Assembly (NCBI GenBank): GCA_016186825.1
Contig: JACPKW010000005.1
Location: 66,025-130,024, forward strand
Source: Candidatus Giovannonibacteria bacterium
Lineage (GTDB): Bacteria; Patescibacteriota; Minisyncoccia; JACPKW01; UBA11713
Reading direction: 5' to 3'
DNA length: 64,000 nt
The translations under genes and the position numbers were made by a program. Positions 3,237 to 21,389 of this stretch are shown here, in pieces (position 1 is the stretch's first letter; each line of letters opens with the position of its first letter). Below the pieces are notes generated by a model that did not search any database, had not been told where the DNA came from, and worked only from the letters and a program-made list of their open reading frames with translations.

Positions 3237-5156
3237 TTAGGGAGTAATTTCACGCACGCTCATTTTTTTATAGATGAGCCCATTCGTTCCAACATTGTCG
3301 CTTCTCCAATAAACGGAGATGTTAGGTTTTCCTGATTCTGTGCCGGGACGTGCGTCCGAATTCGTCAGACGGAGCGCCGGATCAATTCCGGATTTGCAAG
3401 CTGTTCCGCCAATGCCGAAGTTAGAACCATTATCAATCAACTCGTTTATTTTTCGCCATGTTCCGCCATTTGCGCCGTCGGTTTCATCGAGCCACAATTC
3501 GAGTTTTACATTTCCGTCCGGCATATCATAGACAACATATTTGTATCCGATCCAAACGCTTTTTGGAAGTCCGGAAGACCATTGCGTTTTATTTAATGTC
3601 GGGCGCGAATTCGGATGGCTTGTTTCTTTCTCGAAGTCGATATGTCCGTCATAGCGCATCCGCGCCCCGATTCCCCGTGTATCGCAAAGATTCGCGGTCT
3701 CGCTTCCGGTTATTCCGTGGTTCGTTCGCGCGATCCCAACGATTCCGCCGTAAGCCGTTCCTCTGTCGGCAATACGTTTTGCATAAACGGTCATCTCAAC
3801 ATTGCGCCAGCTTGAGACTTTTGCGGGATCATGAATGTACATCCGCGGAACGGATCCGGATATTTTGAAAAGACCTTGGCCATCCACGCTGTAGAACGCA
3901 TTGCCATGATTTGCATCAAACCAGGAATCGTAAGGATCAACGCCGGTGAAATTTCTTACAATACCGTTATCCCATTTCGATACCCATTCCTTCCCACCCG
4001 AAATGGTTGGATATAATCTTTTAATTCCGAATTTGTCTGTCGCAGTTGAAGTTACTGGTTCCGGAGCAGGCGCGGAAATCAGAGTTGCCACGGGAGTCAC
4101 GGAGATATTGCAGACCCAATGAGATCCGCTCGAAGCGTAGAGATTTATTTTTGAGAGACTCGTTACATTAGCCTGTTCCGTTCTGAAAGCATAACCTAGC
4201 CCGAGAGTTTTTTCAGTTGATCCGGGAGAGGTTACGTATATATCGTAGAGGTGATTAGGAATATCCACGACAAGACGAAACTTGTACGAATTTCCGGCAG
4301 AGTAACTTATAACTTGAGACGCTTTGTAGGTTGAGCCGGAGCGCGCATCAATTTTTCCTAAGTTGTTGAAGCGAACGATTGCAGCCATATCTGGATAATC
4401 AGAGACAACCCCGCTCGAAAGTCCTGTAACGCCGTCCATGTAATTTGATTTCGGGGTGCTGTCGAAAGTCAATACAAATTTTCCCGTTTGCGTAGAGATA
4501 GTGTTTGCTTGCCAGCTTGAAGCGCTCGAGACAGTGCATGAAGTTCCTGCATCACTCGAAACCAAAGCGAGCGAGGGATCCGAAACTGTCGAGACTGTTT
4601 GAGTAACTTCAGACCCAACCGCTAAATTGCAAACTGCATGGCCGCCGCTTGAAGCAAAGACATTTACTTTAGAAAGGCTCGTTATATTAGCTTGTTCCGT
4701 TCTGAATGAATAATCGAGGCCGACAGTTTTTTCATCCGAATTCGGCGGCGTAACATAAATGTCATAGAGATGATTTGCTAAATCAACTTCAAGACGGAAT
4801 TTATACGTGTTCCCCGCAAAATACGGGAGCGCATTTGCTGCGCCGTAGGTTGAGCCGGAACGCGCATCAATATTGCCGGAAGCGTTGAAACGCACAATCG
4901 CAGCGAGATCCGTGTAGTCGGAAGCGGGCAAATTCGATAATCCCGTAATGGCATCGATATTATTTGCGCTGGGAGTGGCGTCGAACACGACAGTAAATTT
5001 ACCCGTCTCGGTAGCAAAAGACTGCGCCTGCCAACTCGATTTGGAATCAAGACAGGAGTTATCCGCTGCGGATAATTTTTGATTTAGATTTGTGAAAGTG
5101 CTGAATAAAAGAATTAATGTTAATAATGATACAGATGATTTTTTTACGATTTCCAT
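3237..5156 (-). CDS. Secreted protein (639 aa). It has an N-terminal signal peptide, two tandem ~170-aa internal repeats and a C-terminal beta-jelly-roll/polysaccharide-lyase-like domain.
   Basis: Signal-like N-terminus [21 protein letters not shown]. Two near-identical repeats ([22 protein letters not shown]... and [22 protein letters not shown]...). C-terminal segment [13 protein letters not shown]...[11 protein letters not shown]. Confidence 0.55.
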
Positions 5157-5426
5157 CGAACAATTTCTAATTCTGAATTAAGCAAGCCCTGACATTCTGA
5201 ATTAATCAAGACATTTACATCTTAATGAATTAGTGTCGAAGACGCTCTAGGTGCTCGAAATTGCTTACCAATTCTTTGTTTAAAGATAATAGAATTACAG
5301 CTTACGACCGAGCATAAGTTTAACAGCACGAACTGAATTGTCTTGTGGAAAACTCGTTAAAAACATTTTGACAAAAATAATTTTTAAAATTATAAAAAAT
5401 TCGGAAATTTTTCTAAAAAACGGGTC

Positions 5427-6197
5427 TCATTCCACAAGGATTGAACCGGACATTATTTCGGCATGTGCTGAACAGTGATAAGTATATATTCCCGATTCGT
5501 CGAAAACTAAACTAAAGCGATCTCCTATTTTAAGCAATCTGGAATTTTGCTCGGAATAATAAGTGTGGGCGGGATGAGAATCAGTGTTTACGTAATGTCC
5601 TTCGCTGTCATCATTAATCCAAGTAATTTTGGTTCCCTTGCTTGCGCGGATATTGTTTGGATTAAACTGGATATTCGACATTTTAATTTCAACTTCTGCC
5701 TTTCCGCGCTCATCTTTAAAACTTTCAGCCTTAGCACGATCCAGCGCGAACTGAAATTTTCCATCATGGCAGCTCCCATCCGGCCAGCACGCCTTGTATT
5801 CAACCGTGTAAAGCCCGTCTGGAGAATCCGCTTTCATTTTCCTTCTCATGGCGAGCTTGTTTTGGTCGATTGTAGTTTCGCCGAATCCATAATCTTTGCC
5901 GCTTTTGAGAATTCTTATTTCAGAAGATTTCGCGAGATCAAAATTAAAATCAATTACGATATTAACCGGAACACCCGCTAAAGTTGATCCGTGTGCAGGC
6001 GTATTAGATTCGTAATGCGCGCTTTTTTTGGGATTCGAAAAATTTATTTCGGAAGCACTATCCCCAGAAGGAGTTTGATTATTATTTTGATCATCCAAAG
6101 CTTTGTCGATATTTTCTTGACTCTGGTTGAAAAAGTAAAAACCGCCAAGAGCGAGAAGAATTACGAGTAGAACGGCAGAAATAATATATTTTTTCAT
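5427..6197 (-). CDS. Copper-binding protein: CopC-like domain fused to a C-terminal type-1 cupredoxin (plastocyanin-like), N-terminally anchored
   Basis: TM/signal segment MKKYIISAVLLVILLALGGFYFF. CopC-like segment HYESNTPAHGSTL. The C-terminus carries an H...YHCSAHAEIMSG copper site (H, C, H, M ligands). Confidence 0.65.
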   Translation of the reverse strand: MKKYIISAVLLVILLALGGFYFFNQSQENIDKALDDQNNNQTPSGDSASEINFSNPKKSAHYESNTPAHGSTLAGVPVNIVIDFNFDLAKSSEIRILKSGKDYGFGETTIDQNKLAMRRKMKADSPDGLYTVEYKACWPDGSCHDGKFQFALDRAKAESFKDERGKAEVEIKMSNIQFNPNNIRASKGTKITWINDDSEGHYVNTDSHPAHTYYSEQNSRLLKIGDRFSLVFDESGIYTYHCSAHAEIMSGSILVE

Positions 6198-6234
6198 ACA
6201 TTAAATAACTAGCGTGGATGAAAAACGGTCTTGA

Positions 6235-7011
6235 TTAAGAAATCTTTTCCGATCCGCTTTGTTTCGATTTTTTAACAAATCCCGTGAACGCCTGCAAAAC
6301 TTCCAAAGGCACCGTAAATACGATGGTATTCGACTGGTCCGAAGAAATATCGTTTATGGCCTGCAGTGTTCTTAAATGAAGCGCTCCTTCAGAAGCGGCC
6401 AATGTACCGGCTGCGCGCGCGATATTTTGGGATGCCGCGAGTTCCCCTTCGGATGTAATAATAACGGCTCTTTTTTCACGCTCCGCTTCCGCTTGCTTCG
6501 CAATTGTTCGTTCCATAGTTCCCGGTAATTTTATATCTTTTAATTCAACATTGTTAACTTTGAGCCCCCAGGCGTCAGTTTCTTTATCAACTATTTCTTT
6601 GATGCGGTTTGCAATCGTCTCGCGCCCGCTCAAAAGTTCGTCCAAAGTAACTTCGCCGACGATATTTCGCATGGTCGTTTGCGCGTATTGTGAAATCGCG
6701 TAGAAAAAATTTTCAACTTCGAGAATCGCCTTTTCTGCAGAGGACACCCTATAATAAATGACCGCGTTCACGGCTACCGAAACGTTGTCTTTCGTAATCG
6801 CATTCTGATCGGGAACATCAACGGCTTTCACGCGCATGTCGACGGATTTATAAAATTGAAAAATCGGAAAAACCAAACGCCAACCGGGGTCCATGATCCC
6901 AGTGTATTTTCCGAATGTGAATTTCACGCCGCGCTCATACTGATTAATCTGCTTGATGCTGACAAGAATAATTACAATTACGGCTATTCCCGAAATATAA
7001 TAGATTTCCAT
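6235..7011 (-). CDS. SPFH/band-7 (stomatin/prohibitin-like) membrane protein
   Basis: N-terminal TM, then QYERGVKFTFGKY...AVIYYRVSSAEKA, typical of stomatin/QmcA-family proteins. Confidence 0.85.
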   Translation of the reverse strand: MEIYYISGIAVIVIILVSIKQINQYERGVKFTFGKYTGIMDPGWRLVFPIFQFYKSVDMRVKAVDVPDQNAITKDNVSVAVNAVIYYRVSSAEKAILEVENFFYAISQYAQTTMRNIVGEVTLDELLSGRETIANRIKEIVDKETDAWGLKVNNVELKDIKLPGTMERTIAKQAEAEREKRAVIITSEGELAASQNIARAAGTLAASEGALHLRTLQAINDISSDQSNTIVFTVPLEVLQAFTGFVKKSKQSGSEKIS

Positions 7012-7073
7012 ATTCCGAGTATATCTCCAGACTATTAAATTGTCTAATTGTCAACAATAGCTAAGCCACCGTT

Positions 7074-7556
7074 TCAATCTGCGGCTTTTTTCAATTGATC
7101 AATATCAATTTTTTTCATCTGAAGCATAGCTTTCGAAACTCTTTTGGCTTTTTCAGGATCCGGATCGCTCATAAGCTCGCCTAAAATTGCCGGAACAATT
7201 TGCCAGGAAAGTCCGAATTTGTCCTTCAGCCACCCGCACTGCTCCGCCTCTTTCACCGCAGAAAGTTTTTCCCAGAAATAATCTATGTCTTTCTGCGAGT
7301 CACAATTTACAACAAAAGATATTGATTCGTTGAATTTGAAAACGGGGCCGCCATTAAATGCAAGAAATTGCTGCCCTTCAATTTCGAAGGGAATTACCAA
7401 CGCAGATCCAACGGGCATTTTGGCCGCCTTCGCAATTTCTTCGTCATAGTAAGTTACCTTGCCTTTTTTTGAATTTTTAAAAATAGAAATGTAAAAATTC
7501 ACCGCCTCCTCGGCATTATCGTCAAACCACAAAAATGGAGTAATTTTTTGTTGCAT
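7074..7556 (-). CDS. VOC-superfamily protein, PhnB/3-demethylubiquinone-9 3-methyltransferase-like (PF06983-like)
   Basis: ITPFLWFDDNAEEAVNFYISIF N-terminus characteristic of the PhnB-like family. About 160 aa. Confidence 0.65.
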   Translation of the reverse strand: MQQKITPFLWFDDNAEEAVNFYISIFKNSKKGKVTYYDEEIAKAAKMPVGSALVIPFEIEGQQFLAFNGGPVFKFNESISFVVNCDSQKDIDYFWEKLSAVKEAEQCGWLKDKFGLSWQIVPAILGELMSDPDPEKAKRVSKAMLQMKKIDIDQLKKAAD

Positions 7557-7696
7557 ATAAATATTCTTAACTATAAATATGCAAAAAAAGTTTTTCTTCG
7601 CATTTGCATAAATTGAAAAGAAGCCCGCCTAAGTATAGAACATAAGCGGGCCAACTTTTTAAATTTTTTATCATCTTACGGAGAAACCGTCTTGAG

Positions 7697-9007
7697 TTAG
7701 AACTGATATTTTCGCGGAAAATAGAGCAAGTCTTTAGTAAGCAAAACTGGCATATCCGGAACTGTGCCCTTAATTTCCTTCGCCTGCTCAAGCGCGACAG
7801 TCCCAGGAGGCGGCCTTTCGGGTGTTAACTTACTCCCCAGTGGAATGTGGAGATTTTTTTCGATGATAACGCGGTCTAGTGTAGAGCCCGCTCCGACTTC
7901 GACGCCGTCAAACAGAACCGAGTTTGTGATAAAGCTGCCGGCACCGATTATACATCTGCTAATGACGCTGTGGCTTACAAAAATATTATCCTGAAAGATC
8001 GACCCGAATGAGAGCACCTCGTTGCAGGTAATATTATCTGCTTTCGTCGGAAATGCGGCGGCTTGCGTTACGCCGAAAAGCGGCCACTTTTCGGAAAACA
8101 TATCAAAGATGGGGTTTCGGCGGCACACTTCCATCTGCGCCGCATACCAGCTTTCAAGCGTTCCGACGTCCCGCCAATATCCGCGGCCTTGCGCTGTCAT
8201 ACCGGGATACTCGTTATCCACAAGGTTATAGCCAATCAGACTTTTTTCATGATGTATCAGCCACTGTAAACCCGCACTGCTTAACTTTTGAGCGGGATCT
8301 TTCGCGCGCAGTTTCTCAAGGTAGCCAAGCATTCCAAAAAACTCTTCCGATCTGATGACATACATCGCCAGATTAGCCAGGCAATAACCCGGCCGATCCG
8401 CGAGTTCCAATGGCTTCTCTGGTTTTTCTATGAGGTCGGCAACATTGCCATGTCTGTCCAATTCTAATACGCCAAAGTTATTTTTTGCCTCATTAACAGG
8501 TACAGCTTTATAAACCAGGAGAGCGCACGCTCCAGATTGAAATAGTTTTAACACCATCTGGCGATAATCACACTTAACTATTTGATCGCCCATCGCAATG
8601 ATGACGACGGCAGGGTTTTCATCTTCAAAGTATCGGCGCAATTGCAAGAGCGAATCTGCATCACTCTGGAAAAACCCGTTGGCTTCATGCAATGGCGGCG
8701 TCAAGTGACGAATAAAGTGACCGCGCTGGTGCCCGAGCGTTCCGCCGAACGCATCGCCCACATGTCTCATCAAAGATTGCGGGCGGTACTGGACTGCCAA
8801 AAAAATCCTGGAGCACCATGAATTGATAAGATTTGAGAGCTGAAAATCGACGAGGCGATATTTGGCGCCGAAAAAAAGCGCTGGTTTCGCGCGCTCGCTC
8901 GTCAACGGCCATAATCTTGTCCCAGATCCTCCAGCCAGAACAACTCCCAGAACATTTTCCATATTGACAACAAGAAAATCTTCCTTATTCATAATGTTTT
9001 GCGTCAT
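7697..9007 (-). CDS. glgC: Glucose-1-phosphate adenylyltransferase (ADP-glucose pyrophosphorylase)
   Basis: LGVVLAGGSGTRLWPLTSERAKPAL nucleotidyltransferase motif. C-terminal left-handed beta-helix region. About 436 aa. Confidence 0.88.
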   Translation of the reverse strand: MTQNIMNKEDFLVVNMENVLGVVLAGGSGTRLWPLTSERAKPALFFGAKYRLVDFQLSNLINSWCSRIFLAVQYRPQSLMRHVGDAFGGTLGHQRGHFIRHLTPPLHEANGFFQSDADSLLQLRRYFEDENPAVVIIAMGDQIVKCDYRQMVLKLFQSGACALLVYKAVPVNEAKNNFGVLELDRHGNVADLIEKPEKPLELADRPGYCLANLAMYVIRSEEFFGMLGYLEKLRAKDPAQKLSSAGLQWLIHHEKSLIGYNLVDNEYPGMTAQGRGYWRDVGTLESWYAAQMEVCRRNPIFDMFSEKWPLFGVTQAAAFPTKADNITCNEVLSFGSIFQDNIFVSHSVISRCIIGAGSFITNSVLFDGVEVGAGSTLDRVIIEKNLHIPLGSKLTPERPPPGTVALEQAKEIKGTVPDMPVLLTKDLLYFPRKYQF

Positions 9008-10655: not shown

Positions 10656-11156
10656 TTAATTTAGTACCCAAATGGAGTAGTTGAGATATGCGGCAAAGCT
10701 GACCCAAAGAATGTACGGAACGAGAAGCCAAGCGGCCGGTTTGGAGATTTTTGCAAAAGCGATGATGGTGGCGAGAATGGCGAGCCAGAGGAAGATGATC
10801 TCGACAAACGCGATGCCAATGTTGTTAAGACCGTTTAAGGTGAGCGAAGTCGAACCGAAAAAAATAATTGACCAGAGCATGTTTAAGACAAGCTGACCGA
10901 GGAATATGCCGAGAGCGATTTTTACATCCCTGCGATCCAGTCCCTTTTTCCAAACAAGGAACGCCGCGATGCCCATAAGCACGAACAGCGTCGTCCAGAC
11001 AGGTCCGAACACCCACGCGGGAGGATTAAGCGCAGGCTTCACGAGCCCGCCATACCAGTTCGGAATTACTGAGACAGTAAAAAACGAACCGATTATACCG
11101 GCCAATTCCGAAACACCAATCGCAATTATTAATTTAAAAAAATTATTAAGCTTCAT
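10656..11156 (-). CDS. tspO: TspO/MBR tryptophan-rich sensory protein
   Basis: Five TM helices. Conserved NPPAWVFGPVWTTLFVLMG and WLLVPYILWVSFAAYLN motifs. Confidence 0.85.
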   Translation of the reverse strand: MKLNNFFKLIIAIGVSELAGIIGSFFTVSVIPNWYGGLVKPALNPPAWVFGPVWTTLFVLMGIAAFLVWKKGLDRRDVKIALGIFLGQLVLNMLWSIIFFGSTSLTLNGLNNIGIAFVEIIFLWLAILATIIAFAKISKPAAWLLVPYILWVSFAAYLNYSIWVLN

Positions 11157-11169
11157 AAATTTGATTTGT

Positions 11170-11211
11170 TACAATATCCTTAAAAACTGGAGTTTTTAAG
11201 GATATTGTAAT
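11170..11211. promoter_or_regulatory. Perfect 19-bp inverted repeat with a 5-nt spacer: TTACAATATCCTTAAAAAC-TGGAG-GTTTTTAAGGATATTGTAA. Candidate operator upstream of tspO.
   Basis: Seen directly in the sequence. It overlaps the 3' end of the ArsR ORF and lies 15-55 bp upstream of the tspO start. A half-site recurs at 11514-11541 and 13079-13105. Confidence 0.5.
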
Positions 11212-11492
11212 GTCTTTTGAAACGACTGCAGAAAGTGGGCAAATGTTTTGCCATATGGTGACAGGGTGTGCTCCACAAATTTACCGCGGTACTTTTTATT
11301 CAGAAGTCCTGCCTGACAAAGTCGGCGTGTGTGTTCGCCAATAGTTTTTTCGTTGGCACCAAGTGCCTCAATAATATCCTCGAGCGTTATCCCGTTACGT
11401 TTCGCAATAAGAAGAAGTATATCAATCCGGTAATGATTGGCCAACCCCTTCAGATGCCGCTCCATTTGTTTCGCCGTCTTTATTTTTACCAT
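11196..11492 (-). CDS. ArsR/SmtB-family winged-helix transcriptional regulator
   Basis: HYRIDILLLIAKRNGITLEDIIEALGANEKTIGEHTRRLCQAGLL HTH segment typical of the ArsR family. About 98 aa. Confidence 0.8.
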   Translation of the reverse strand: MVKIKTAKQMERHLKGLANHYRIDILLLIAKRNGITLEDIIEALGANEKTIGEHTRRLCQAGLLNKKYRGKFVEHTLSPYGKTFAHFLQSFQKTLQYP

Positions 11493-11513
11493 AGTTATAT
11501 TATATACAATACA

Positions 11514-11541
11514 CTTACATTCTCAAGTTTTTAAGGATGTC
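11514..11541. promoter_or_regulatory. Half-site copy of the tspO-upstream palindrome (ACATTCTCAAGTTTTTAAGGATGT), located upstream of the ArsR gene
   Basis: Shares GTTTTTAAGGAT with 11170-11211. Lies 20-50 bp upstream of the ArsR start. Confidence 0.4.
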
Positions 11542-13019: not shown

Positions 13020-13078
13020 AACTCCTTATTTTCTTTTTGAATCACTTTGACCATATTTTTGATTGTACACAATACCCC

Positions 13079-13105
13079 AACATTCTCAAGTTTATAAGGA
13101 TGTTA
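13079..13105. promoter_or_regulatory. Third copy of the ArsR-box-like motif (ACATTCTCAAGTTTATAAGGATGT), upstream of the TreT-like gene
   Basis: Lies 60-85 bp upstream of the minus-strand start at 13019. Confidence 0.4.
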
Positions 13106-13283
13106 CGCGCTGGATGCGGACTAACGGACGGATGCTCTAAATTTTCCACCGAAAACCTTTCGGACACTCTAAAATTTTTCCTCTCCGGACTCAAAACCAC
13201 CAAAGGAATTGAAAGAAATCTTTTTGCTAAAAAGTTTCTTTCAAACATTTTCTATTCCCCCGAAAGCATTAAAATCCGCTTCA

Positions 13284-13415
13284 CCCCGTTAGAAAATTCT
13301 TTTCTAACGGGGGTTCATTTCTCGCCAAAGCGTCCCGCCGTGGCGGGACGCGGAGCGAAGCCCAGCCCCGCTTGTAGCGGGGCTGGGCGACCTGCCTGCC
13401 GGCAAGGCAGGGCGA
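13284..13415. repeat. Cluster of four strong GC-rich hairpins, including the CCTGCCTGCCGGCAAGGCAGG member of a dispersed palindromic repeat family
   Basis: Perfect 13-bp hairpin CCCCGTTAGAAAA/TTTTCTAACGGGG. Also CGTCCCGCC-GTG-GCGGGACG, CCCAGCCCCGC-TTGTA-GCGGGGCTGGG and CCTGCCTGCCGGCAAGGCAGG. The last of these recurs at 56900-57030. Confidence 0.55.
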
Positions 13416-13440
13416 ACCCTCTCGTCTTCAAAAAATGAGT

Positions 13441-13660
13441 TCGTATCTAGTTTCTTGGCTCCATACCCTGAACGAAATCCGAACGCATTTTCAGGAAACC
13501 TCCGACGAATGAAGCCGCCCCGCCGCCGCTCGCTAACGCTCGCCAGCCAGCAAAAAAGTTTTCTCTGCATTTCTGATTTTGCGCGCGCCGGATTTCTCCC
13601 CCCAACCCCCTCCTGCCGAGCCGTCCTCACGGTTGGCGGTGGCGTTTATTTCTAAATTAT
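13441..13660. repeat. Left terminal inverted repeat (~200 bp) of the cassette; outer terminus TGGCTCCATACCCTGAACG
   Basis: Its reverse complement matches 19010-19265 almost exactly, apart from an ~85-nt insertion in the right copy. Confidence 0.8.
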
Positions 13661-15147
13661 AAAGTTTTATGAAGTGCCTGCCAAATTGAATACATCGCAT
13701 ACGTATCAAGCCCACAATATATTTTTAGATCGTTTATGGATTTCTCTTTTTGGGCGTCGTTAAAACCGCCACTTACGATTTTATTCCAAGTATCTGCGGC
13801 ACTTCCACCATCTCGTATTTCAAGCTCTTTGTATGATAATTCAGGAACTAAAACAGGCAAAATTCTTTTTATGGAAGTGCCGCCCCTAAAGTCTCGGTGT
13901 ATATGATATTGTTTTCTAAAAATATCTTCCAAGTCATACACGCGTCCTTTCAAGGAATCCATAAACGATTTCATTTCGGGAATTCTAATCGCAATCTCGT
14001 CGTTTCTTCCACACTCAAATCCTTTGTGCCAAACAATAATACTCCCAGTCGTACCCAAATGTTTTTGTAACGATTCAGCAAATGATTTACTCGGATCATC
14101 GGACGCAACGTGTAAAAACTCATAATGTTCCGGTTTGCTTTCCGGCGACTTCAAAACATCAACGGAATATTGGAACGGTATTTGATGGTAGGGGGAAAAC
14201 CCGTCAAATCTTGGAATTGCCGCTGGAAACGTTTCGTAATCTAAAAAATATAAGGGGAATGTTAAAGCATCAAACTCTGCTTTGATTTTTTCTTTTTCAA
14301 CCAAAACTTTATTCAGAATATATGTGTCAACCTGGCCCTGTTGAATATCGGTTAGCTTGATATGGGAAGGAATTTTATCGAGGTGAAAAATATTATTATC
14401 AATCAATTCCTTCAGTTTTGCTTTACTGTTTCCTATGCGCGCTATATCGTGGACGCTATATTCTGGAACTTCTGGATTTGAATGCTGAAAGGTTGAACAA
14501 TGCTTGGAGCGTCCTTTATAAACACAACAGCAATATCCGTTTGGTTTAGTCTCTTGAGAAAGATATTCAAGTGCCCCTTGCGATTCATTGGATACTTCTG
14601 TTGTTAAACTTTCAACTTCGCTAGTGACATCGACAATCTTAAATAAATTTTGAATGTCAAGATCATTCGTTCGCACATATTCCGAATTCAAATGTATTAT
14701 GTATGCCTTGTCGATTTGTAAACCATGCTTTCTTAGTAAGTTAACTTGAAAAGCTAGGTCGTGATAATGAGTTTTGTTATCTACGTCGCTTGTTGATTTT
14801 ATTTCGTATACAAAATAACCACCGCTCTCCGGATTAAACTTCAAAACATCTATTGCCGCCAAAAGATTACCACCAACAAAGACAGGTTGAAACAGGATTT
14901 CTTGATGCTTTGCAATGTAATCCTGCGTAACTTTTTGCCCTTCCTCATCTCGCCGTTCAATTAAAACGCCGCCTGGAAATAATTTCCGCGCTATCAATTC
15001 AACTTCATTACCTGTCTCCATGATGGACTTTTCAAATTCAGATAATTCAGATTCAGAATAAATGTCTGGTCTATGTATTTTATACCAGACATTTTGAGGG
15101 CATTCTCTATAAAGAATATAATCAGTTTTTGTAAGTGTAATAGTCAT
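13657..15147 (-). CDS. DUF2779-family protein: N-terminal Cas4/RecB-like PD-(D/E)xK nuclease with a Cys cluster plus a C-terminal DEDD (RNase H-like) exonuclease-like domain
   Basis: N-terminus TKTDYILYRECPQNVWYK (DUF2779-like). CCCVYKGRSKHCSTF cysteine cluster. YFLDYETFPAAIPRFDGFSPYHQIPFQYS (D-x-E) and YCGLDTYAMY at the C-terminus. Confidence 0.65.
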   Translation of the reverse strand: MTITLTKTDYILYRECPQNVWYKIHRPDIYSESELSEFEKSIMETGNEVELIARKLFPGGVLIERRDEEGQKVTQDYIAKHQEILFQPVFVGGNLLAAIDVLKFNPESGGYFVYEIKSTSDVDNKTHYHDLAFQVNLLRKHGLQIDKAYIIHLNSEYVRTNDLDIQNLFKIVDVTSEVESLTTEVSNESQGALEYLSQETKPNGYCCCVYKGRSKHCSTFQHSNPEVPEYSVHDIARIGNSKAKLKELIDNNIFHLDKIPSHIKLTDIQQGQVDTYILNKVLVEKEKIKAEFDALTFPLYFLDYETFPAAIPRFDGFSPYHQIPFQYSVDVLKSPESKPEHYEFLHVASDDPSKSFAESLQKHLGTTGSIIVWHKGFECGRNDEIAIRIPEMKSFMDSLKGRVYDLEDIFRKQYHIHRDFRGGTSIKRILPVLVPELSYKELEIRDGGSAADTWNKIVSGGFNDAQKEKSINDLKIYCGLDTYAMYSIWQALHKTL

Positions 15148-15148
15148 A

Positions 15149-18100
15149 TTAAGATTGTATCCATCCTTTATCTTCTAGCTTTCCAATGACAATGCGTCCG
15201 ATTGTCGCATTATCTTGAAATGAGTAGATCAATCCAGCATGGCGTGTTTTCAAGCCAATCCATGTTTTTACTTCTAGCGCAACCGCCAAATTTTTACCAT
15301 CAGGTGATAGCTCGGCCGCCTCAACTTTGCATTTTCCACCCTTTAGCGAAGCGGACACATAATCGTTTATCGTCTGCCATAACTCCGGCTTATCAGATTT
15401 TTTCCTTGTTCCATTCAAAAGATTGAATAACAAATCTAGATGAAATGGGGCTTGCGTGGAAATAAATTCTGAATATACAGGTACCCCTGTCAGCTCGCAA
15501 TCTTTTAGATCTTCGGGATGACATTTGCGACCACTCCACGAACAAGACCTTGCTTCCGAAGGAGAACAGAAATTCCCAATAATAGAACGAACGGCTTCAG
15601 TTTCAAGGAGGGGCGCACCAGACAAGTTGCTGAATATAAATTCTTGCTTATGGCCCGTCTTGCCAGAAACAACAGATTTTAGCTGTTCATCGTTTCGATA
15701 TTTTTTCCCCGATATTTGGCTAACTGCCAATTCACTTTCAAGAACTTCTGATTTAGTGAATTCACATATTCCAAAATATTGCGCTTCGGCACGCTTCCCA
15801 CTTAGAACCGATGTCTTTAAAAATTTTTTAGCAACCATCTCTCCGGTTACAGCTGATTTTTCCGCCTCATCAACCAAAACTCGCTTCTGGCTGAATGCAC
15901 AGAGAACAGTGTGCTCTGGATATGCGAACCGACTACTTATCTCCGATTGGACCAGAAAATGTCGAAGTGCAACTTGTTTAGTAATAGCGCATTGACCGAG
16001 ACAGTCGCGGGGTACTACCTTGCCGGATTTCATACATTTATCCATTTCAGGCGATATCACCTTTGTCGAAAAAGGAGTTATGGTCAATAGACTTCTATAT
16101 TCGCCGCCCTCATCAAATTTGTATGACACTCTTGTTTTCAAATCTCTATGAACGGTGCCTTCAAGACCAACCAATGAAATTTCTAATCTGGGAGTAAATT
16201 CGTCTTCAAGTTTTTTCTTTTTGCGTAGATCGTTACCCGCCGAGGCCATTTCCTGCTCTCTCCTCTCGGTATAAAAGCGACAGAAATCCAAAATATTTGG
16301 ATCTTGCATTGCTTTTTCTGCTAACTTTTTAGAAATTGCACCTATTGTCGTGGGGTTTTCTATTTGAGCACCTATCGGCTCAAGTCCAATCTTGGTAACA
16401 AAGTTGAAATGTTCTTCTGGAGAACATTCAACCTCAACCAATCGCTCATAACTATCATGAGCCACGGTTGCACGAACTCTTAACAACGCCTTACCTGCAA
16501 AATGCCTCGATACGTCTTGTATATCAATTTCTCTAAAATCTGCCCCGAAATTTTTGACCCAATCATTTGCAATTTTCTCGGCTCCCATGTGAGGATTTTG
16601 ATCGTTATCGTCCACGAGATGCAATCCGACATTTGTAACCTTACTCACAAGGCGTTCAAATACTGCCGTACCGGGAGCGTACAAAATACTTTCTTCTTTG
16701 CCGCTCAAGGTATTGTTATCAAATCGAATTAACTCTCTTTTTCCACCGAGATGCGACACGACCATATTGCCATCTTCCTTAAGTTTCGCACCAAAATCAG
16801 ATAGAGCAGTTAATACAAAAGTGCGAGCATCTATGGTGTGCTCTGTCTGCGGTAGTTTAGGACAGCGCGGACCAAAATCCTGCATGTCTCCCATACCGCC
16901 GAGAAGTGAATTAATGTTCTTTTCTTCTTTTTCTAGCTCTGATTTTGCGTTTTTTATACTTTCTTCGGCTTGCTTGGTTGCTCGCTCCACGTCCTTACCC
17001 GCTAGCGAAGCAACGACTAATTGTCTTATCTTCTCCTCAAAGCCACTCGATCCATTTTCCTCTCCCTCGTCGATTCCCGACGCTTCAAGCAGAGCCTCAA
17101 TGTCTCCGATTGCATGAGATGCCAACTGCAATTTTTCCATTAATCTGCCAACAATGTACTCCTCAAAAGTATTTTTTAAGACGATGTTAAAAATAGATAC
17201 GTTTTCAAAATTAGAAGACAATCGTTGAATACGACCGATACGTTGTTCAACGATCATCGGATTCCATGGTAAATCATAATTAACTAGAACGTTTGCGGCT
17301 TGTAGATTGATACCCTCTGAACCAGCTTCGGTTGATACAATAACGTGAATTTCGGGTAAATCCTTCTTAAACTTCGCAATAGTTTCTTGGTTCCTAGTAT
17401 TAGAATCACCGTTTATAAGTCCGCAAGAAATTTTTTCTTTTTCAAGAAAACTTTGTATTGCTGTTTGAGTTTCGCGCCATCGAGTGAACACAACTAACCG
17501 CCACGTGTCTGGTTGTTCCACTCTTAGTTTTTCAATCAAAGCACTAAGTCCTTTTAATTTTGTCGTTGTCTTAATGTCTTTCGCAATTTCTTTAACATCC
17601 TTTGCTAAAGATTTTGGCGCGGTATCCTTTTTCGCCATTCCTTCTAGTAGTTTAACTAGCGCCTCGGGGCTACTTACAAGTGCTTGTAAGATTACTATCT
17701 GCGAAAGGTAATTTAGTTCTTGGATTGGTTTCGCAATTACCCTGAAAAGATCTAACTCCTTTTCAGATGGTTCAACTTTATGCATCAGAACTTTTCTTTC
17801 AGGGAAGTGGAGCTTTGCGTCTCCTCTGCGCACACGAGACATATATCCATAGACAATCGAGCGAAATTCATCACGCATTTCCGGTTTAAGTTGGCGTGCA
17901 GTAGTCCGACTATCGGCTATAAATTTTCGAGCGAATGTACCTTGATTGCCAAAGGGATTTTCATGACCTCGTGCAACGGTTAATAAATCCACCAAGGAGT
18001 AAAGATCCCAGAGACGATTTTGTATTGGGGTAGCAGTTAGCATCAGAACATATTTGAATAACCTATCAGAAAGCGCCTTGCGAAATCTTTGTGCAACTTG

Positions 18101-18667
18101 TGGTGTAGGGTCAACGCCGTAAAGATTTCGCAGTTTGTGTGCCTCATCAAGTATCAGCATGTCGAAGCCGTCCTGTTTGATTCTATCGAGATACAATCTA
18201 GCGGTGTTATAAGTTGTTATCACTGCTCCCGTCTCCTCGGGAGGTTCTGCAGTGATAAGTTCTCTGCCGGTAACAATCACTGAAGGGATATCGAATTTAA
18301 CATCCAATTCCTCTTTCCACTGCTCGCGGAGTATTTTCGGGCAGACCACCAATATTTTCGAAATCCTTCCTCGTGAAATGAGTTCACTTACAACCAATCC
18401 GGCACTTATTGTTTTTCCAAGACCAACATCATCTGCCAACAAAGTGACCGGAAGACGACGGCAGAAAGAAATAAGATTTGTAACTTGATGATGGTAGGGC
18501 TCAACACGATCGCGCCATTTACTTTCCGATCGCATATCCTCCCTATCTTCAATAACGATAGGTTCAACCAAGTCCCACTCAAGAGCAGCCCGATACAAAC
18601 CATACTTTTCTGGAGTAGAAGCTCTCTTTAGTGTTCTTGTCTGAAATGGTAGCTGAGATAAATCCAT
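15149..18667 (-). CDS. SNF2/Swi2-family helicase (N-terminal ~530 aa) fused to an uncharacterised ~640-aa Cys-containing C-terminal region
   Basis: Motif I LADDVGLGKTI, motif II LILDEAHKLRN, motif III LTATPIQN, motif VI QRIGRIQR. The C-terminal half has no recognisable motifs. Confidence 0.85.
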   Translation of the reverse strand: MDLSQLPFQTRTLKRASTPEKYGLYRAALEWDLVEPIVIEDREDMRSESKWRDRVEPYHHQVTNLISFCRRLPVTLLADDVGLGKTISAGLVVSELISRGRISKILVVCPKILREQWKEELDVKFDIPSVIVTGRELITAEPPEETGAVITTYNTARLYLDRIKQDGFDMLILDEAHKLRNLYGVDPTPQVAQRFRKALSDRLFKYVLMLTATPIQNRLWDLYSLVDLLTVARGHENPFGNQGTFARKFIADSRTTARQLKPEMRDEFRSIVYGYMSRVRRGDAKLHFPERKVLMHKVEPSEKELDLFRVIAKPIQELNYLSQIVILQALVSSPEALVKLLEGMAKKDTAPKSLAKDVKEIAKDIKTTTKLKGLSALIEKLRVEQPDTWRLVVFTRWRETQTAIQSFLEKEKISCGLINGDSNTRNQETIAKFKKDLPEIHVIVSTEAGSEGINLQAANVLVNYDLPWNPMIVEQRIGRIQRLSSNFENVSIFNIVLKNTFEEYIVGRLMEKLQLASHAIGDIEALLEASGIDEGEENGSSGFEEKIRQLVVASLAGKDVERATKQAEESIKNAKSELEKEEKNINSLLGGMGDMQDFGPRCPKLPQTEHTIDARTFVLTALSDFGAKLKEDGNMVVSHLGGKRELIRFDNNTLSGKEESILYAPGTAVFERLVSKVTNVGLHLVDDNDQNPHMGAEKIANDWVKNFGADFREIDIQDVSRHFAGKALLRVRATVAHDSYERLVEVECSPEEHFNFVTKIGLEPIGAQIENPTTIGAISKKLAEKAMQDPNILDFCRFYTERREQEMASAGNDLRKKKKLEDEFTPRLEISLVGLEGTVHRDLKTRVSYKFDEGGEYRSLLTITPFSTKVISPEMDKCMKSGKVVPRDCLGQCAITKQVALRHFLVQSEISSRFAYPEHTVLCAFSQKRVLVDEAEKSAVTGEMVAKKFLKTSVLSGKRAEAQYFGICEFTKSEVLESELAVSQISGKKYRNDEQLKSVVSGKTGHKQEFIFSNLSGAPLLETEAVRSIIGNFCSPSEARSCSWSGRKCHPEDLKDCELTGVPVYSEFISTQAPFHLDLLFNLLNGTRKKSDKPELWQTINDYVSASLKGGKCKVEAAELSPDGKNLAVALEVKTWIGLKTRHAGLIYSFQDNATIGRIVIGKLEDKGWIQS

Positions 18668-18672
18668 AGTTA

Positions 18673-18873
18673 TTACAGCAATTCACTCGGTTTGACCCCA
18701 AGTGCTTTGGCCAATTTTTCAATATTTTTTAAAGCCATATTTCTGACCCCGCGCTCAATGCCGGAAATATAGGTTGGATGCACACCTAAAATCTTCGCGA
18801 GGTCTCCTTGCGACATCTTCTTCTGTAGACGCAACTCTTTTACTTTTTTGCCAAACTTAACGGAAATATCCAT
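18673..18873 (-). CDS. XRE-family (Cro/CI-type) HTH transcriptional regulator, first gene of the operon
   Basis: LRLQKKMSQGDLAKILGVHPTYISGIERG is a canonical XRE HTH. 66 aa. Its stop lies 6 bp from the SNF2 start. Confidence 0.85.
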   Translation of the reverse strand: MDISVKFGKKVKELRLQKKMSQGDLAKILGVHPTYISGIERGVRNMALKNIEKLAKALGVKPSELL

Positions 18874-18906
18874 AGTTTTTCCACTTTATCACATATTGCA
18901 ATATTT

Positions 18907-18932
18907 TTCTATATAGAATAATATTTCTATAT
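18907..18932. promoter_or_regulatory. Candidate operator/promoter of the XRE-SNF2-DUF2779 operon
   Basis: Perfect 12-bp palindrome TTCTATATAGAA followed by a direct repeat ATTTCTATAT, 35-60 bp upstream of the XRE start. Confidence 0.35.
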
Positions 18933-19009
18933 GAGTATCAATGGGAGTTCCAAAAACTTGTCCGCGCACTGGGAGGGTGGGGCAAGGACAAGAAAAGAAA
19001 TAAACGCCA

Positions 19010-19265
19010 CCGCCAACCGTGAGGACGGCTCGGCAGGAGGGGGTTGGGGGGAGGAATGCCGAGCCGTCCGAGCGAATAGAAAAGAGGCCAGCCCCGCCGC
19101 CTGCTCTGTTAGGAGCAGAAGCCAGCCAAAAAGTTTCGCAAAATCAGAAATGCAGAGAAAACTTTTTTGCTGGCTGGCGAGCGTTAGCGAGCGGCGGCGG
19201 GGCGGCTTCATTCGTCGGAGGTTTCCTGAAAATGCGTTCGGATTTCGTTCAGGGTATGGAGCCAA
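19010..19265. repeat. Right terminal inverted repeat of the cassette (copy of 13441-13660 with an ~85-nt insertion)
   Basis: Reverse-complement identity to the left TIR over about 200 nt. Ends in GGAGCCA. Confidence 0.8.
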
Positions 19266-19332
19266 ATTGTATGATACGAGTTCACCGCCTCGGGGCTTCG
19301 CCCCTCGGCGGGCACATCAGCAAGAATTTTCC
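19258..19332. repeat. 75-bp inverted repeat, left copy (GGAGCCAAATTGTATGATACGAG...CAGCAAGAATTTT), flanking the recombinase gene
   Basis: Identical in reverse complement to 20878-20952. Confidence 0.85.
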
Positions 19333-19479
19333 ACGACTTTTTGGGTTCAAAGCAAATCGCTTGCGAGCGCAAAACGTGGTTCGCCGCGCAAAGCGCGGAG
19401 TAAATGGAAATTTACAGCCAATTCTTTTTCTTCCGCCTTCGGCGGAAAGCAAAGCGATAATTTTTAGCCCAAAAGCGAT

Positions 19480-21000
19480 ATGAAATACTTTTTATACATC
19501 AGAAAATCAACGGACGAGGACGACAGACAAGTTTTGTCGCTGGAAGCGCAGGAAACGGAATTGAAAGAATTTGCCTTGCGGGAAAATCTTTTGATCGCCG
19601 CGACTTTCCGCGAATCGCAGACCGCCAAAGAGCCGGGCAGACCGATTTTTAACGATATGCTCAAACGAATGGAGCGCGGCGAGGCCGAGGGGATTTTAGC
19701 GTGGCATCCAGACCGATTGGCGAGAAACAGCATAGACGGCGGACGGATTATTTTCTTGGTAGACACTGAAAAAATCAGATCGCTAAAATCCCCGACATTT
19801 TGGTTTGAGCCGACCCCGCAAGGCAAATTCATGCTCAATATCGCTTTTGGGCAATCCAAATACTTTGTGGATAATCTTTCAGTGAATACCAAAAGAGGGT
19901 TGCGTCAAAAATTGCGCCGAGGCGAATTGCCCGGCTATGCGCCGCTTGGCTATTTGAACGACTTGCTAAAACACACAATCTACAAAGACCCCGAACGTTT
20001 TCGCCTCGTCCGCAAACTTTTTGAACTTTACGCAACCGGAAATTATTCTCTGAAAGATTTGCGGAAGTTGATAACTTCCGCCGGCTTGTTGAGCCGCAAA
20101 GGAAATATGCTTTCCGTCTCCAATATCCAAAATATACTCTCTACTTCATTTTATTATGGCGTATTCAAATACAATGGCGAACTCTACGACGGAAAGCATG
20201 AGCCAATGATTGCAAAGAAACTTTTTGAAGCGTGCCAAAAAGTGATGGCGGATCGTTCGCGCCCGAAAAAGCCGAGCCAAAAGGAATATCCGTTTAGAAA
20301 CTTGCTCAAGTGCGGCGAGTGCGGGTGCGCTATCACTTCCGAAACGCAAAAAGGACATAACTACTACCGCTGTACCAAAAAGAAAGACAAGCAATGTTCG
20401 CAAAAATATATCCGCGAGGAAGTTTTGGCACGCCAGATTTCGGACGAGATTCAAAAAGTTTCTTTGCCTCCCGCTTGGGCGGAGTGGATGTTAGCAGAAC
20501 TCAACAAGGAAGAAGCAGAAGCCGCCCAAGCGGGCGCCGTTTTCGCTCAAAATCTCAAAAACAAAATAAAAGAGCTTGAAGGAAAGCTCGACCTGCTTTT
20601 AGATGCACATTTAGCCAGCACTATTTCGCGCGAGGAATACACCGCCAAAAAAGAGAAATTGATAATTGAAAAGGCCGAGCTTTCCGAAAAATTGAAGGAT
20701 TTTGAGCGAAACGGCAATCATTGGCTCGAACCGGCCCGGCAATTCATTTTAGCGGCTCAACAAGCCAAAATTATCGCTTTGCAAGAAAATCCCGTCACGG
20801 GACGGGATTTTCTAAAAAGAATTGGCTCGAACCACGTTTTGCGCTCGCAAGCGATTTGCTTTGAACCCAAAAAGTCGTGGAAAATTCTTGCTGATGTGCC
20901 CGCCGAGGGGCGAAGCCCCGAGGCGGTGAACTCGTATCATACAATTTGGCTCCCCGGGCAGGATTCGAACCTGCGACCCACTCCTTACACTTATCCCTAA
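19480..21000 (+). CDS. Large serine recombinase (resolvase/invertase catalytic domain, recombinase domain, zinc ribbon and coiled-coil). The last ~40 codons read through the right IR and the tRNA 3' exon.
   Basis: YIRKSTDEDDRQ catalytic Ser motif. CGECGCAITSETQKGHNYYRC zinc ribbon. The ORF end overlaps 20878-20952 and tRNA 20947-20987. Confidence 0.85.
   Translation: MKYFLYIRKSTDEDDRQVLSLEAQETELKEFALRENLLIAATFRESQTAKEPGRPIFNDMLKRMERGEAEGILAWHPDRLARNSIDGGRIIFLVDTEKIRSLKSPTFWFEPTPQGKFMLNIAFGQSKYFVDNLSVNTKRGLRQKLRRGELPGYAPLGYLNDLLKHTIYKDPERFRLVRKLFELYATGNYSLKDLRKLITSAGLLSRKGNMLSVSNIQNILSTSFYYGVFKYNGELYDGKHEPMIAKKLFEACQKVMADRSRPKKPSQKEYPFRNLLKCGECGCAITSETQKGHNYYRCTKKKDKQCSQKYIREEVLARQISDEIQKVSLPPAWAEWMLAELNKEEAEAAQAGAVFAQNLKNKIKELEGKLDLLLDAHLASTISREEYTAKKEKLIIEKAELSEKLKDFERNGNHWLEPARQFILAAQQAKIIALQENPVTGRDFLKRIGSNHVLRSQAICFEPKKSWKILADVPAEGRSPEAVNSYHTIWLPGQDSNLRPTPYTYP
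20878..20952. repeat. 75-bp inverted repeat, right copy. It overlaps the 3' end of the intron-containing tRNA.
   Basis: Reverse complement of 19258-19332. Confidence 0.85.
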
Positions 21001-21271
21001 GTTTCCTTGGGGGGTGGACTATATCATCATCCCTGTTTTTGGATGCGAGGCGCTTCGACCGTCGCTTGTGACGGGCTACTCTCTTTCGAGATAGTCTCTG
21101 AACCTTCCTTCATCTTGCTTCGCAATCCGAAGCTTTAGCGAAAGATTGGCTGCGGATTACCTTAGAAAAATTCTTTAGGCTTCCCGCAATTCACCTCGTT
21201 TTTCAACCGGAATTACTTCCGGAAGCTGCCATTTTTGACAGGGAGTCGCTCTACCGCTGAGCTACCGGGGA
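20947..21271 (-). tRNA. tRNA, best read as Asn(GUU), interrupted by a ~250-nt group I-like intron in the anticodon loop. Exons 21238-21271 and 20947-20987; intron 20988-21237; CCA encoded. Asp(GUC) is the alternative if the boundaries are shifted.
   Basis: 5' exon TCCCCGGTAGCTCAGCGGTAGAGCGACTCCCTGT. 3' exon TAAGGAGTGGGTCGCAGGTTCGAATCCTGCCCGGGGAGCCA, giving a perfect cloverleaf. The intron follows a U and ends in G, and contains P7-like CAGAGACTA ... ATATAGTCC elements. Confidence 0.65.
20988..21237 (-). other. Putative group I self-splicing intron within the tRNA anticodon loop (no ORF)
   Basis: Lies between anticodon positions 35 and 36. Contains GACUA/UAGUC P7-like motifs. Boundaries are a 5' U and a terminal G. 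Confidence 0.5.
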
Positions 21272-21389
21272 ATATCTGCTGATATTATAACTTTCTGATT
21301 CCGTTTTCAACATTTCAGCTCAAAATTGCTCTGAAATTTGCTTTCATATAGAATAAAAAGATAAAAAATTAGCTCTGTTAAACGCATAT

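Follow-up and report, generated by a model that had tools for sequence, protein, structure and literature searches.

A family-specific C-terminal tail with a 15-residue tandem repeat in an SNF2-family ATPase of Candidatus Giovannonibacteria, and its genomic setting

The DNA studied here, hereafter the window, is a stretch of 64,000 nucleotides from contig JACPKW010000005.1 (positions 66,025 to 130,024) of a Candidatus Giovannonibacteria assembly (GCA_016186825.1). We were concerned with a gene for an SNF2-family ATPase whose C-terminal part, 15149-17077 (residues 531-1172 plus the stop codon, 642 amino acids; hereafter the tail), had been flagged in an initial annotation as a region in which no motif could be assigned. 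The gene is the middle one of a three-gene cassette that begins with a controller-like helix-turn-helix (HTH) regulator and ends with a DUF2779 nuclease. Its other neighbours in the window are a serine recombinase, a glycosyltransferase and a radical SAM enzyme, and the coordinates of the features are collected in Table 1.

Table 1 Features of the SNF2 gene, its cassette and the flanking repeats in the window
Feature	Residues	Position in window	Strand	Basis
SNF2-family ATPase gene, 1172 aa	motor 1-530; family-specific tail 531-1172	15149-18667	-	Open reading frame (ORF) list, translation
Tail: post-helicase helices, generic SNF2 core	531-592	16892-17077	-	AlphaFold2 helices 13-25 and 30-60 of the tail model; long helices at residues 543-590
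Tail: conserved alpha/beta domain with motif VAHDSYERL	614-762	16382-16828	-	Alignment, AlphaFold2
Tail: helical segment with EFCRFYxER and KLEDDFTPR, then long beta-hairpin	763-868	16064-16381	-	AlphaFold2, conservation
Tail: about 13 tandem 15-residue units	869-1070	15458-16063	-	Register, consensus, periodicity, DSSP
Tail: C-terminal domain, two helices, then five-stranded antiparallel sheet	1071-1172	15152-15457	-	AlphaFold2 helices 548-555 and 564-577, strands 582-641 of the tail model
Partner nuclease, 496 aa, Cas4-like PD-(D/E)xK plus DUF2779/DnaQ-like exonuclease domain		13657-15147	-	Pfam, PADLOC, residues read
HTH regulator, 66 aa, heads operon		18673-18873	-	phmmer against PDB, restriction-modification (R-M) controller proteins
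AT-rich palindrome, candidate operator, just upstream of regulator		18892-18933		Inverted repeat I5, 26-nt arms, 88% complementary
Left arm of inverted repeat around the three-gene cassette; rich in guanine and cytosine (GC), structured		13455-13653	-	I1, I3, blastn
Right arm of the same repeat, 72-nt insert, runs into recombinase gene leader		18996-19265	+	I1, I3, blastn
Large serine recombinase, 506 aa		19480-21000	+	Pfam Resolvase, Recombinase, Zn_ribbon_recom

The SNF2 motor and the tail behind it

In the N-terminal half, SNF2-rel_dom (PF00176) covers residues 75-315 with 101.5 bits against a cut-off of 24.9, and Helicase_C (PF00271) covers residues 378-483 with 72.3 bits against 23.5. Helicase motifs I (GLGKT at 82), II (DEAH at 174), III (TATP at 211) and VI (QRIGRIQR at 475-482, and not around residue 500 as first placed) are intact. 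With both lobes above the curated thresholds and these four motifs present, the whole 1172-residue protein is by profile and motif an SNF2/SWI2-family ATPase. Its motor finds its top family scores in PADLOC and NCBIfam among the SNF2 proteins of defence systems, namely DrmD, BrxHI, HmaA, DpdE and ZorD. The result that the initial annotation had named as refuting its view, a confident match to a domain of housekeeping function such as RapA-like modules, did not materialise, since the RapA/HepA model aligns to the motor only and with a score far below the equivalog cut-off. A housekeeping RNA polymerase recycling factor of the RapA type, in which the tail would serve as the polymerase-binding module, was already disfavoured, and we consider it exceedingly improbable.

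The observation that some 640 C-terminal residues lack an assignable motif was correct, because residues 531-1172 gave no significant match in the libraries searched. Nothing was found in Pfam (E ≤ 0.1), PADLOC or PHROGs, NCBIfam returned a single match at chance level (E 0.084), and the tail used as a single sequence against PDB sequences retrieved nothing significant (best E 0.53). When a profile of the tail family was compared with the PDB, the sole marginal match was the pentapeptide-repeat protein MfpA (E 0.048, domain i-E 0.53), which may be taken as a hint of beta-rich repeat structure in the array described below, not as evidence of membership. The description of the whole region as uncharacterised has to be narrowed to about 580 residues, as the first 60 or so (531 to about 590) are covered by the DrmD, BrxHI, Hef and phrog_62 helicase models, which extend to residues 577-590.

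The structural checks that had been proposed, prediction followed by a fold search, gave a confident model of the tail without a significant match. The AlphaFold2 model, built from an alignment of 50 homologues, has a mean predicted local distance difference test score (pLDDT) of 87.5, with 403 residues at 90 or above, and a predicted template-modelling score of 0.54. Foldseek found nothing in the PDB at E ≤ 1e-3, the matches to kinesin and CD1 having template-modelling (TM) scores below 0.1. Viral models gave low-TM matches only, to uncharacterised phage proteins and LIM/metallothionein-like proteins, which we read as repeat-on-repeat similarity. The conserved alpha/beta domain that follows the post-helicase helices, which we refer to as the hub, was also sought in other architectures, and only short unannotated fragments without any other domain were retrieved. 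In the model, the segment behind the hub divides into helices (residues 763-826) and a long beta-hairpin (827-864), and the secondary structure of the C-terminal domain spans residues 1078-1171. This last domain is the least conserved part of the tail, with 39% identity to distant members.

The main feature of the tail, which the initial annotation did not report, is a 15-residue tandem repeat at residues 869-1070 with the consensus [ST]-G-[KR]-x-[VA]-[LP]-x-x-[EL]-[LF]-x-x-[CS]-x-[VFI]. Autocorrelation of residue classes within the array gave z scores of 7.4 at a lag of 15 residues and of 6.2 and 6.6 at twice and three times that lag, values that none of 2000 shuffles reached, and by the same measure the remainder of the tail carries no 15-residue periodicity signal. 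According to the DSSP assignment of the model, each unit is predicted to consist of a three-residue strand, a three-residue helical turn, a second three-residue strand and a six-residue loop, C/S-x-x-S/T-G-K/R, with pLDDT of about 90-95. Pfam finds nothing in the repeats, even in a relative with 70 units.

The number of units is elastic. We counted them by motif register, in place of an hmmsearch with a model of the 15-residue unit that was dropped because it undercounted the repeats. Protein length follows the in-register motif count (r = 0.85) over a range from 13 to about 71 units, with both ends of the array conserved. Some relatives, such as P0127 and P0139, reach about 70 units in proteins of about 2,100 residues. 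Four units that the majority of relatives possess are absent from the window protein; they correspond to a 60-residue insertion after tail residue 482.

Among the Cys groups that had been pointed out in the tail, CPKLPQTEH (C602/H610) is not conserved, the two positions being Ala and Arg in the majority of relatives. CLGQC (C889/C893) is conserved at 98-100%, and most of the last cluster (C1034, C1042, H1050 and C1057) is conserved to the same degree among close relatives, with the exception of C1049. The conserved Cys and His residues lie as sets at the two ends of the array, C878, C889, C893 and H903 at one end and C1034, C1042, H1050 and C1057 at the other, and such C/C/C/H sets are found only there. 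Internal units have one Cys or Ser at position 13 and a Ser or Thr at position 1, and with one Cys or Ser per unit they would not hold a four-ligand metal site. Each individual unit keeps its own choice of Cys or Ser at position 13; of the 133 divergent representatives, 124-127 retain C878, C893, C923 and C968.

Conservation, distribution and the partner nuclease

The tail is real coding sequence under strong purifying selection. In comparison with the Uhrbacteria orthologue (locus L004), the motor has a rate of nonsynonymous substitution (dN) of 0.031 and the tail one of 0.106. Since synonymous sites are saturated (synonymous rate dS > 1.5), dN/dS is given as a bound, at about 0.02-0.035; against the two nearest orthologues, dN for the tail is 0.11 and dN/dS at most about 0.035. 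Among 1.84 billion proteins, the profile of the tail matched at least 1,485 cluster representatives at E ≤ 1e-3, of which 409 reached E ≤ 1e-30, and a word index yielded 233 homologues with 38-82% identity. The nearest relatives belong to Candidatus Liptonbacteria and Uhrbacteria (81-82%), from which a source of the window in the Candidate Phyla Radiation would be probable. Across phyla the motor is 63-73% identical and the tail 38-48%. The motor is 94% identical to its nearest relatives despite the saturated synonymous sites, and identity follows no taxonomic gradient.

The alignment of orthologues that had been suggested as a check allowed conserved acidic, His and Cys residues to be mapped. 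In the 133 divergent representatives, whose median identity is 26%, D738 is present in all 133 and E741 in 122, and D789, F795, Y799, R802 and E806 are nearly universal. A further candidate, a His/Cys site in the hub formed by H683, H737, C748 and H753, was dropped because these residues, conserved in the subfamily, are not universal.

One could imagine from these positions that the tail holds a catalytic effector of a new fold, for instance a metal-dependent nuclease in the hub and helices, with DUF2779 as an accessory end-processing enzyme. The nearly universal acidic and aromatic residues D738, E741, D789, Y799, R802 and E806 could form an active site, and they count against the non-catalytic role that we favour below. 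No nuclease family or fold was matched at a meaningful level, however, and the D-S-Y-E spacing on one hairpin fits, by reading, no PD-(D/E)xK, HNH, GIY-YIG or RNase H pattern. The His and Cys residues of the subfamily site do not help this case since they are not universal, and the conserved charged residues could equally line a DNA-binding or motor-contact surface. The suggestion in the initial annotation that the tail might be a nuclease effector found nothing in its favour that would show this; the likely effector is a separate Cas4-like plus DEDD nuclease encoded immediately downstream. We consider a catalytic tail unlikely; should it prove to be one after all, it would represent a new nuclease fold.

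The start codon of this partner nuclease lies 1 nt beyond the SNF2 stop codon (TAAtATG). Its product matches DUF2779 (PF11074) with 129.5 bits against a cut-off of 23.3, and Cas4 more weakly (Cas_Cas4 in Pfam, E 4.6e-4; Cas4 in PADLOC, E 2e-7). The residues that could be read comprise D100, E115-x-K117 and Cys 16, 206-208 and 217 for the Cas4-like domain, and D303-x-E305 and Y476-x3-D480 for the exonuclease domain. By domain score and catalytic residues, the gene is thus predicted to encode a DUF2779-type nuclease, Cas4-like with a DEDD domain. Published work assigns DUF2779 to the DnaQ-like 3'-5' exonucleases, with a Cas4-like nuclease attached (PMC3985635, PMC13621843).

An iterated hidden Markov model found the DUF2779 family adjoining the SNF2 gene in 33 of 81 loci (designated here by L numbers). 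Where at least 3 kb of flank was available on both sides, an adjacent DUF2779 gene was present in 20 of 55, mostly with a gap of at most 50 nt. In L038, the two are fused in a protein of 1758 residues that comprises PDDEXK_1, RNase_H_2, SNF2, Helicase_C and the tail, with the nuclease N-terminal to the motor, and in L010, L056 and L076 the neighbour of the SNF2 gene encodes a PDDEXK, RNase_H_2 and superfamily 1 (SF1) helicase protein. At the nucleotide level, the similarity of the window to the Uhrbacteria locus L004 (80%) extends over just the SNF2 and nuclease genes (13667-18684), and the flanks are unrelated. There is no second conserved neighbour among 133 flanking ORFs, and those that recur are scattered: recombinases, integrases, OLD/GajA, SIR2, PDC candidates and Wadjet.

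Both genes also occur in broken form. The nuclease gene is split by insertion sequence (IS) elements in Bradyrhizobium STM 3562 and is reduced to short remnants in L007, L019 and L063. Copies of the SNF2 gene are split, frameshifted or N-terminally truncated in L007, L009, L020/L002, L028, L035/L001, L044, L053, L061 and L071. In two isolate genomes these lesions are an in-frame stop at codon 457 (L028) and a frameshift near codon 100 (L035), while sequencing error may explain some of the broken copies from long-read metagenome bins.

The distribution of the SNF2 family is that of an accessory gene. When the tail motifs were used as scan patterns, 135 of 185,579 species genomes (one genome per species, about 0.07%) carried the family. 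They are spread over, among others, groups of the Candidate Phyla Radiation (CPR), Nitrospirota, Acidobacteriota, Alpha-, Beta- and Gammaproteobacteria, Planctomycetota, Elusimicrobia, Ignavibacteria and Verrucomicrobiota. No relatives were found in phage, plasmid and IMG/VR collections.

This pattern bears on the idea that the pair is a host helper of DNA repair or recombination like MrfAB or AddAB, with a tail that targets lesions or stalled complexes. The motor is very strongly conserved, and the SNF2 gene of Bradyrhizobium lies near Ku and ligase genes. DUF2779 proteins are moreover widespread; one of them is quasi-essential in the minimal Mycoplasma genome, and its DEDD domain resembles the repair exonuclease MrfB (PMC13621843). 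A repair factor would, however, be hard to reconcile with a family that is patchy across phyla and so rare among species, that moves as a two-gene block with unrelated flanks, and whose copies are IS-disrupted or frameshifted in isolates. The controller-regulated slot that it occupies holds, moreover, R-M systems elsewhere, as described in the next section. We regard a repair function as quite improbable.

The cassette, its regulator and the flanking repeats

The regulator at the head of the cassette matches the R-M controller proteins C.AhdI (E 9.7e-14), C.BclI (E 1.1e-13) and C.Esp1396I (E 6.7e-9) in a phmmer search of the PDB. By homology it is a controller (C)-like protein of the XRE-type HTH class, with the palindrome upstream of its gene as a candidate C-box. 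A partial copy of a flanking 25-mer is found at 21332-21356.

The two arms of the inverted repeat that encloses the cassette are identical over 129 nt (13455-13583 and 19137-19265) and 98% identical over a further 62 nt (13592-13653 and 18996-19057). In the inverted-repeat analysis of the window these segments appear as I1, with 129 nt at 100%, and I3, with 69 nt at 94%. The left arm has a GC content of 58%, compared with 43% for the window. As RNA, the left arm together with its unique flank (13270-13656) folds with z = -5.95 and the stretch of the right arm with z = -4.87 relative to shuffled controls. Rfam contains no family for the arms; a match to HepC_CRE was rejected as spurious (36.5 bits against 140).

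A second and perfect inverted repeat (I2) of 126 nt brackets most of the recombinase gene (19258-19383 and 20828-20953), with one arm inside the 3' coding region. Inversion, an IS-like unit or an assembly effect are possible explanations of it. In L083, a sequence that matches 20946-20987 comes straight after the X arm, as though the Z-recombinase-Z' unit were an insertion. That the perfect repeats of 126-129 nt are an assembly artefact seems unlikely, since the arms run on at 94-98% identity with an indel and the element recurs as inverted pairs around other cargoes in independent assemblies; for the segments that are 100% identical, a residual chance of such an artefact persists.

The flanking repeat and the recombinase recur together elsewhere. 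A 41-nt probe from the arm identified 31 metagenome stretches. Their copies of the element share 71-97% identity with that of the window, and in many cases a homologous large serine recombinase gene comes directly after the element. In five stretches, two outward-facing inverted copies of the element surround a cargo of 2.8-5.7 kb, as in the window. The element, about 250 nt long and GC-rich (window; L083-L113), might serve as a recombination site, as a leader RNA or in both capacities.

The cargoes between the inverted copies are diverse. L091 carries Type III Mod and Res together with a HARE-HTH/PD-(D/E)xK protein, behind a regulator 83% identical to that of the window. L100 carries an AccI-type endonuclease, an Eco57I-like methylase and a reverse transcriptase, with a regulator at 49% identity. 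The regulator was not found in L113, whose cargo is a LexA/S24-methylase fusion, nor in L104, where two AsnB-like enzymes and an acetyl-CoA-hydrolase/transferase-like protein (4557-8592) might constitute a module for the modification of nucleic acids or metabolites. The 105 ORFs located no more than 6 kb from the element gave Pfam matches to EcoRI methylase (4), N6_N4_Mtase (3), GmrSD_N (3), HNH (3), AAA_21 (3), ResIII (2) and RVT_1 (2). Since shared repeats and a shared controller frame R-M systems, of Type III and of Type II, the SNF2-nuclease pair sits in a position that is used elsewhere mainly for restriction-type cargo.

In two other genomes the SNF2-nuclease cassette is likewise flanked by repeats, which are higher in GC than their own loci and have no sequence relationship to the window repeats. 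L003 has them as inverted copies (8068-8135 and 13455-13523), L006 as direct ones (118-196, 5451-5530 and 11152-11229).

The repeats raise the alternative that the SNF2 protein and the nuclease serve the mobile element itself, in the transfer, inversion or maintenance of the repeat-bounded cassette. The cassette is bracketed by GC-rich repeats in the window and also in L003 and L006. A homologous recombinase is encoded in the retrieved locus, with flanks of up to 10 kb, in 12 of 81 cases, in several of them directly beside the cassette, and conservation is very high, as it would be for core element machinery. In 31 other stretches, however, the same framework lacks both SNF2 and DUF2779 and carries unrelated cargoes. 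Repeats and recombinase alike are absent from most SNF2 loci, and the phage, plasmid and IMG/VR collections, as noted above, hold no relatives. A role in the service of the element thus appears very unlikely to us.

Two further features lie near the cassette. Right after the stop codon of the recombinase there is a complete group I intron on the reverse strand (20995-21331; RF00028, 89.3 bits, E 7e-23). An internal insertion in it holds a tRNA-like D-arm sequence, GGUAGCUCAGCGGUAGAGCG, at which ARAGORN calls no tRNA, and the surroundings of the intron yielded no host gene, be it for rRNA, tRNA or protein. An intergenic repeat of 42 nt is present in three copies that are 74-86% identical (11164-11205, 11499-11540 and 13062-13103), two of which form hairpins around small ORFs between the TspO and glycosyltransferase genes.

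Proposed role and comparison with known systems

The overall model that we favour, and which we regard as evenly poised between right and wrong, is that the SNF2 translocase and the dual nuclease form a restriction-like defence system in which the tail is a non-catalytic recognition or regulatory arm. The SNF2 motor would track along double-stranded DNA, and the DUF2779 dual nuclease, a Cas4-like PD-(D/E)xK nuclease plus a DEDD exonuclease, would degrade it. The pair is the cargo of a controller-regulated cassette, bounded by inverted repeats and placed beside a large serine recombinase, and would act against incoming DNA without a methyltransferase. The tail consists of a conserved alpha/beta and helical hub at the motor, then 15-residue hairpin units that number about 13 to about 71 among relatives and would form a rod, and lastly a small alpha+beta head.

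A role of the pair in defence is in our view probable, because the SNF2 gene and that of a double nuclease share a mobile slot whose contents elsewhere are restriction enzymes; the link to defence, merely assumed in the initial annotation, is now supported by genomic context. The tail itself is probably not the effector, because a dedicated nuclease is linked or fused to the motor, because neither a nuclease-like fold nor a nuclease-like motif was found, and because the number of repeats is elastic. Such elasticity between fixed ends fits a spacer or binding platform better than the core of an enzyme. For the positive statement that the tail is a non-catalytic arm, we would put the chances a little below even. 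The domain layout, the repeat, its conservation, the selection on the tail, the link to the nuclease and the cargo setting are direct results of the analysis; the defence role, the absence of catalysis in the tail and the target that it may recognise are inferred.

More speculative still, and to be held tentatively, is the notion of a new defence system whose specificity would reside in the hub, a rod of variable length with metal-site caps, and the terminal head, and which would be interchangeable cargo alongside R-M systems in an undescribed carrier of CPR-type bacteria. This carrier would be made up of the conserved and structured inverted repeats together with the controller protein and the large serine recombinase.

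Several observations, in addition to the potential active site discussed above, weigh against this interpretation. An adjacent nuclease is lacking in 59% of the loci, so that motor and tail may act alone or with an unlinked partner. The fusion in L038 joins the nuclease at the N-terminus, and the tail is thus not obviously a docking site for it. Constraint on the motor is unusually tight, far more so than is customary for a defence gene or a rare accessory gene. The cargo of L104, in the same framework, is not recognisably defensive. PADLOC-DB 2.0 (2023) has no model for the tail or for the gene pair and gives only weak Cas4 matches for the nuclease. Finally, the putative rod geometry and clustering of the Cys and His residues are read from predicted secondary structure.

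If the defence model is true, a rare but widely spread helicase-nuclease pair would join the catalogue of defence systems, and would do so from the Candidate Phyla Radiation, whose immune repertoire is poorly known. It would bring with it a new module and a 15-residue repeat that varies more than five-fold in copy number, a tractable case in which to study how a translocase is targeted or restrained. A carrier that swaps R-M systems and this pair behind one controller would further provide a 'guilt by position' tool for finding the defence cargoes of uncultured bacteria.

The best-scoring relatives of the motor are DrmD of DISARM (195.9-208.9 bits) and BrxHI of BREX (187.7 bits), with similarity that reaches to about residue 590. 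The DrmD models score well below their cut-offs (NF038317, 208.9 against 610; NF038318, 190.4 against 950) and align to the motor and brace helices only, and the cassette contains no DrmA, DrmB or DrmC, no methylase and no Brx or Pgl genes. A likeness in logic is offered by HmaA and by ZorD of type I Zorya, which combine an SNF2 motor with a nuclease of the PD-(D/E)xK class in an accessory context and whose PADLOC models match the window motor. HmaA acts against phage T4 by way of its nuclease domain (PMC11232893). In HmaA and ZorD, however, it is the C-terminal part of the SNF2 protein that forms the nuclease, whereas the window encodes it as a Cas4-like plus DEDD protein of its own, and L038 has it fused N-terminally; the C-terminus of the window protein is instead a module of 580 residues without a family, and partners of the HmaB/C or ZorA/B/C type are absent. 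PADLOC aligns only residues 369-521, to positions 490-647 of the HmaA model, with no PADLOC or Pfam nuclease match in the tail, and the ZorD models cover nothing beyond the motor (67.6 bits for NF041790, whose cut-off is 1500).

For the repeat, one might look to pentapeptide-repeat proteins (MfpA, Qnr) or to zinc-knuckle arrays (LIM, FYVE, metallothionein-like), but the measured period is 15 and not 5 or 20, and there is no pentapeptide-repeat Pfam match in either the 13-unit window protein or a relative with about 70 units. As judged from these profile comparisons, no family in the libraries searched accommodates the tail or its repeat, and the pair belongs to none of DrmD, RapA, ZorD and HmaA; a literature search found no description of an SNF2-DUF2779 pair.

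Two other kinds of system share the general logic. Hachiman (HamA and HamB) and the Cas4-RNase H-SF1 proteins of the COG2251 type likewise pair a helicase with a PD-(D/E)xK nuclease, but their helicases are Ski2-like or SF1 as opposed to an SNF2 translocase, and there is no sequence relationship to HamA or HamB. Type IV restriction enzymes of the SauUSI kind combine a nuclease, here of the phospholipase D (PLD) type, with a helicase and a target-recognition domain. No homology to the SauUSI recognition domain came to light, though no search was aimed at it, and a dependence on DNA modification would be purely hypothetical for the window system. The window nuclease is, moreover, Cas4/DEDD and not PLD. 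The resemblance lies in the joining of a nuclease to a superfamily 2 ATPase with a large C-terminal region that could read the target, in the lack of a methyltransferase, and in the controller of the window operon, which is in the style of R-M systems.

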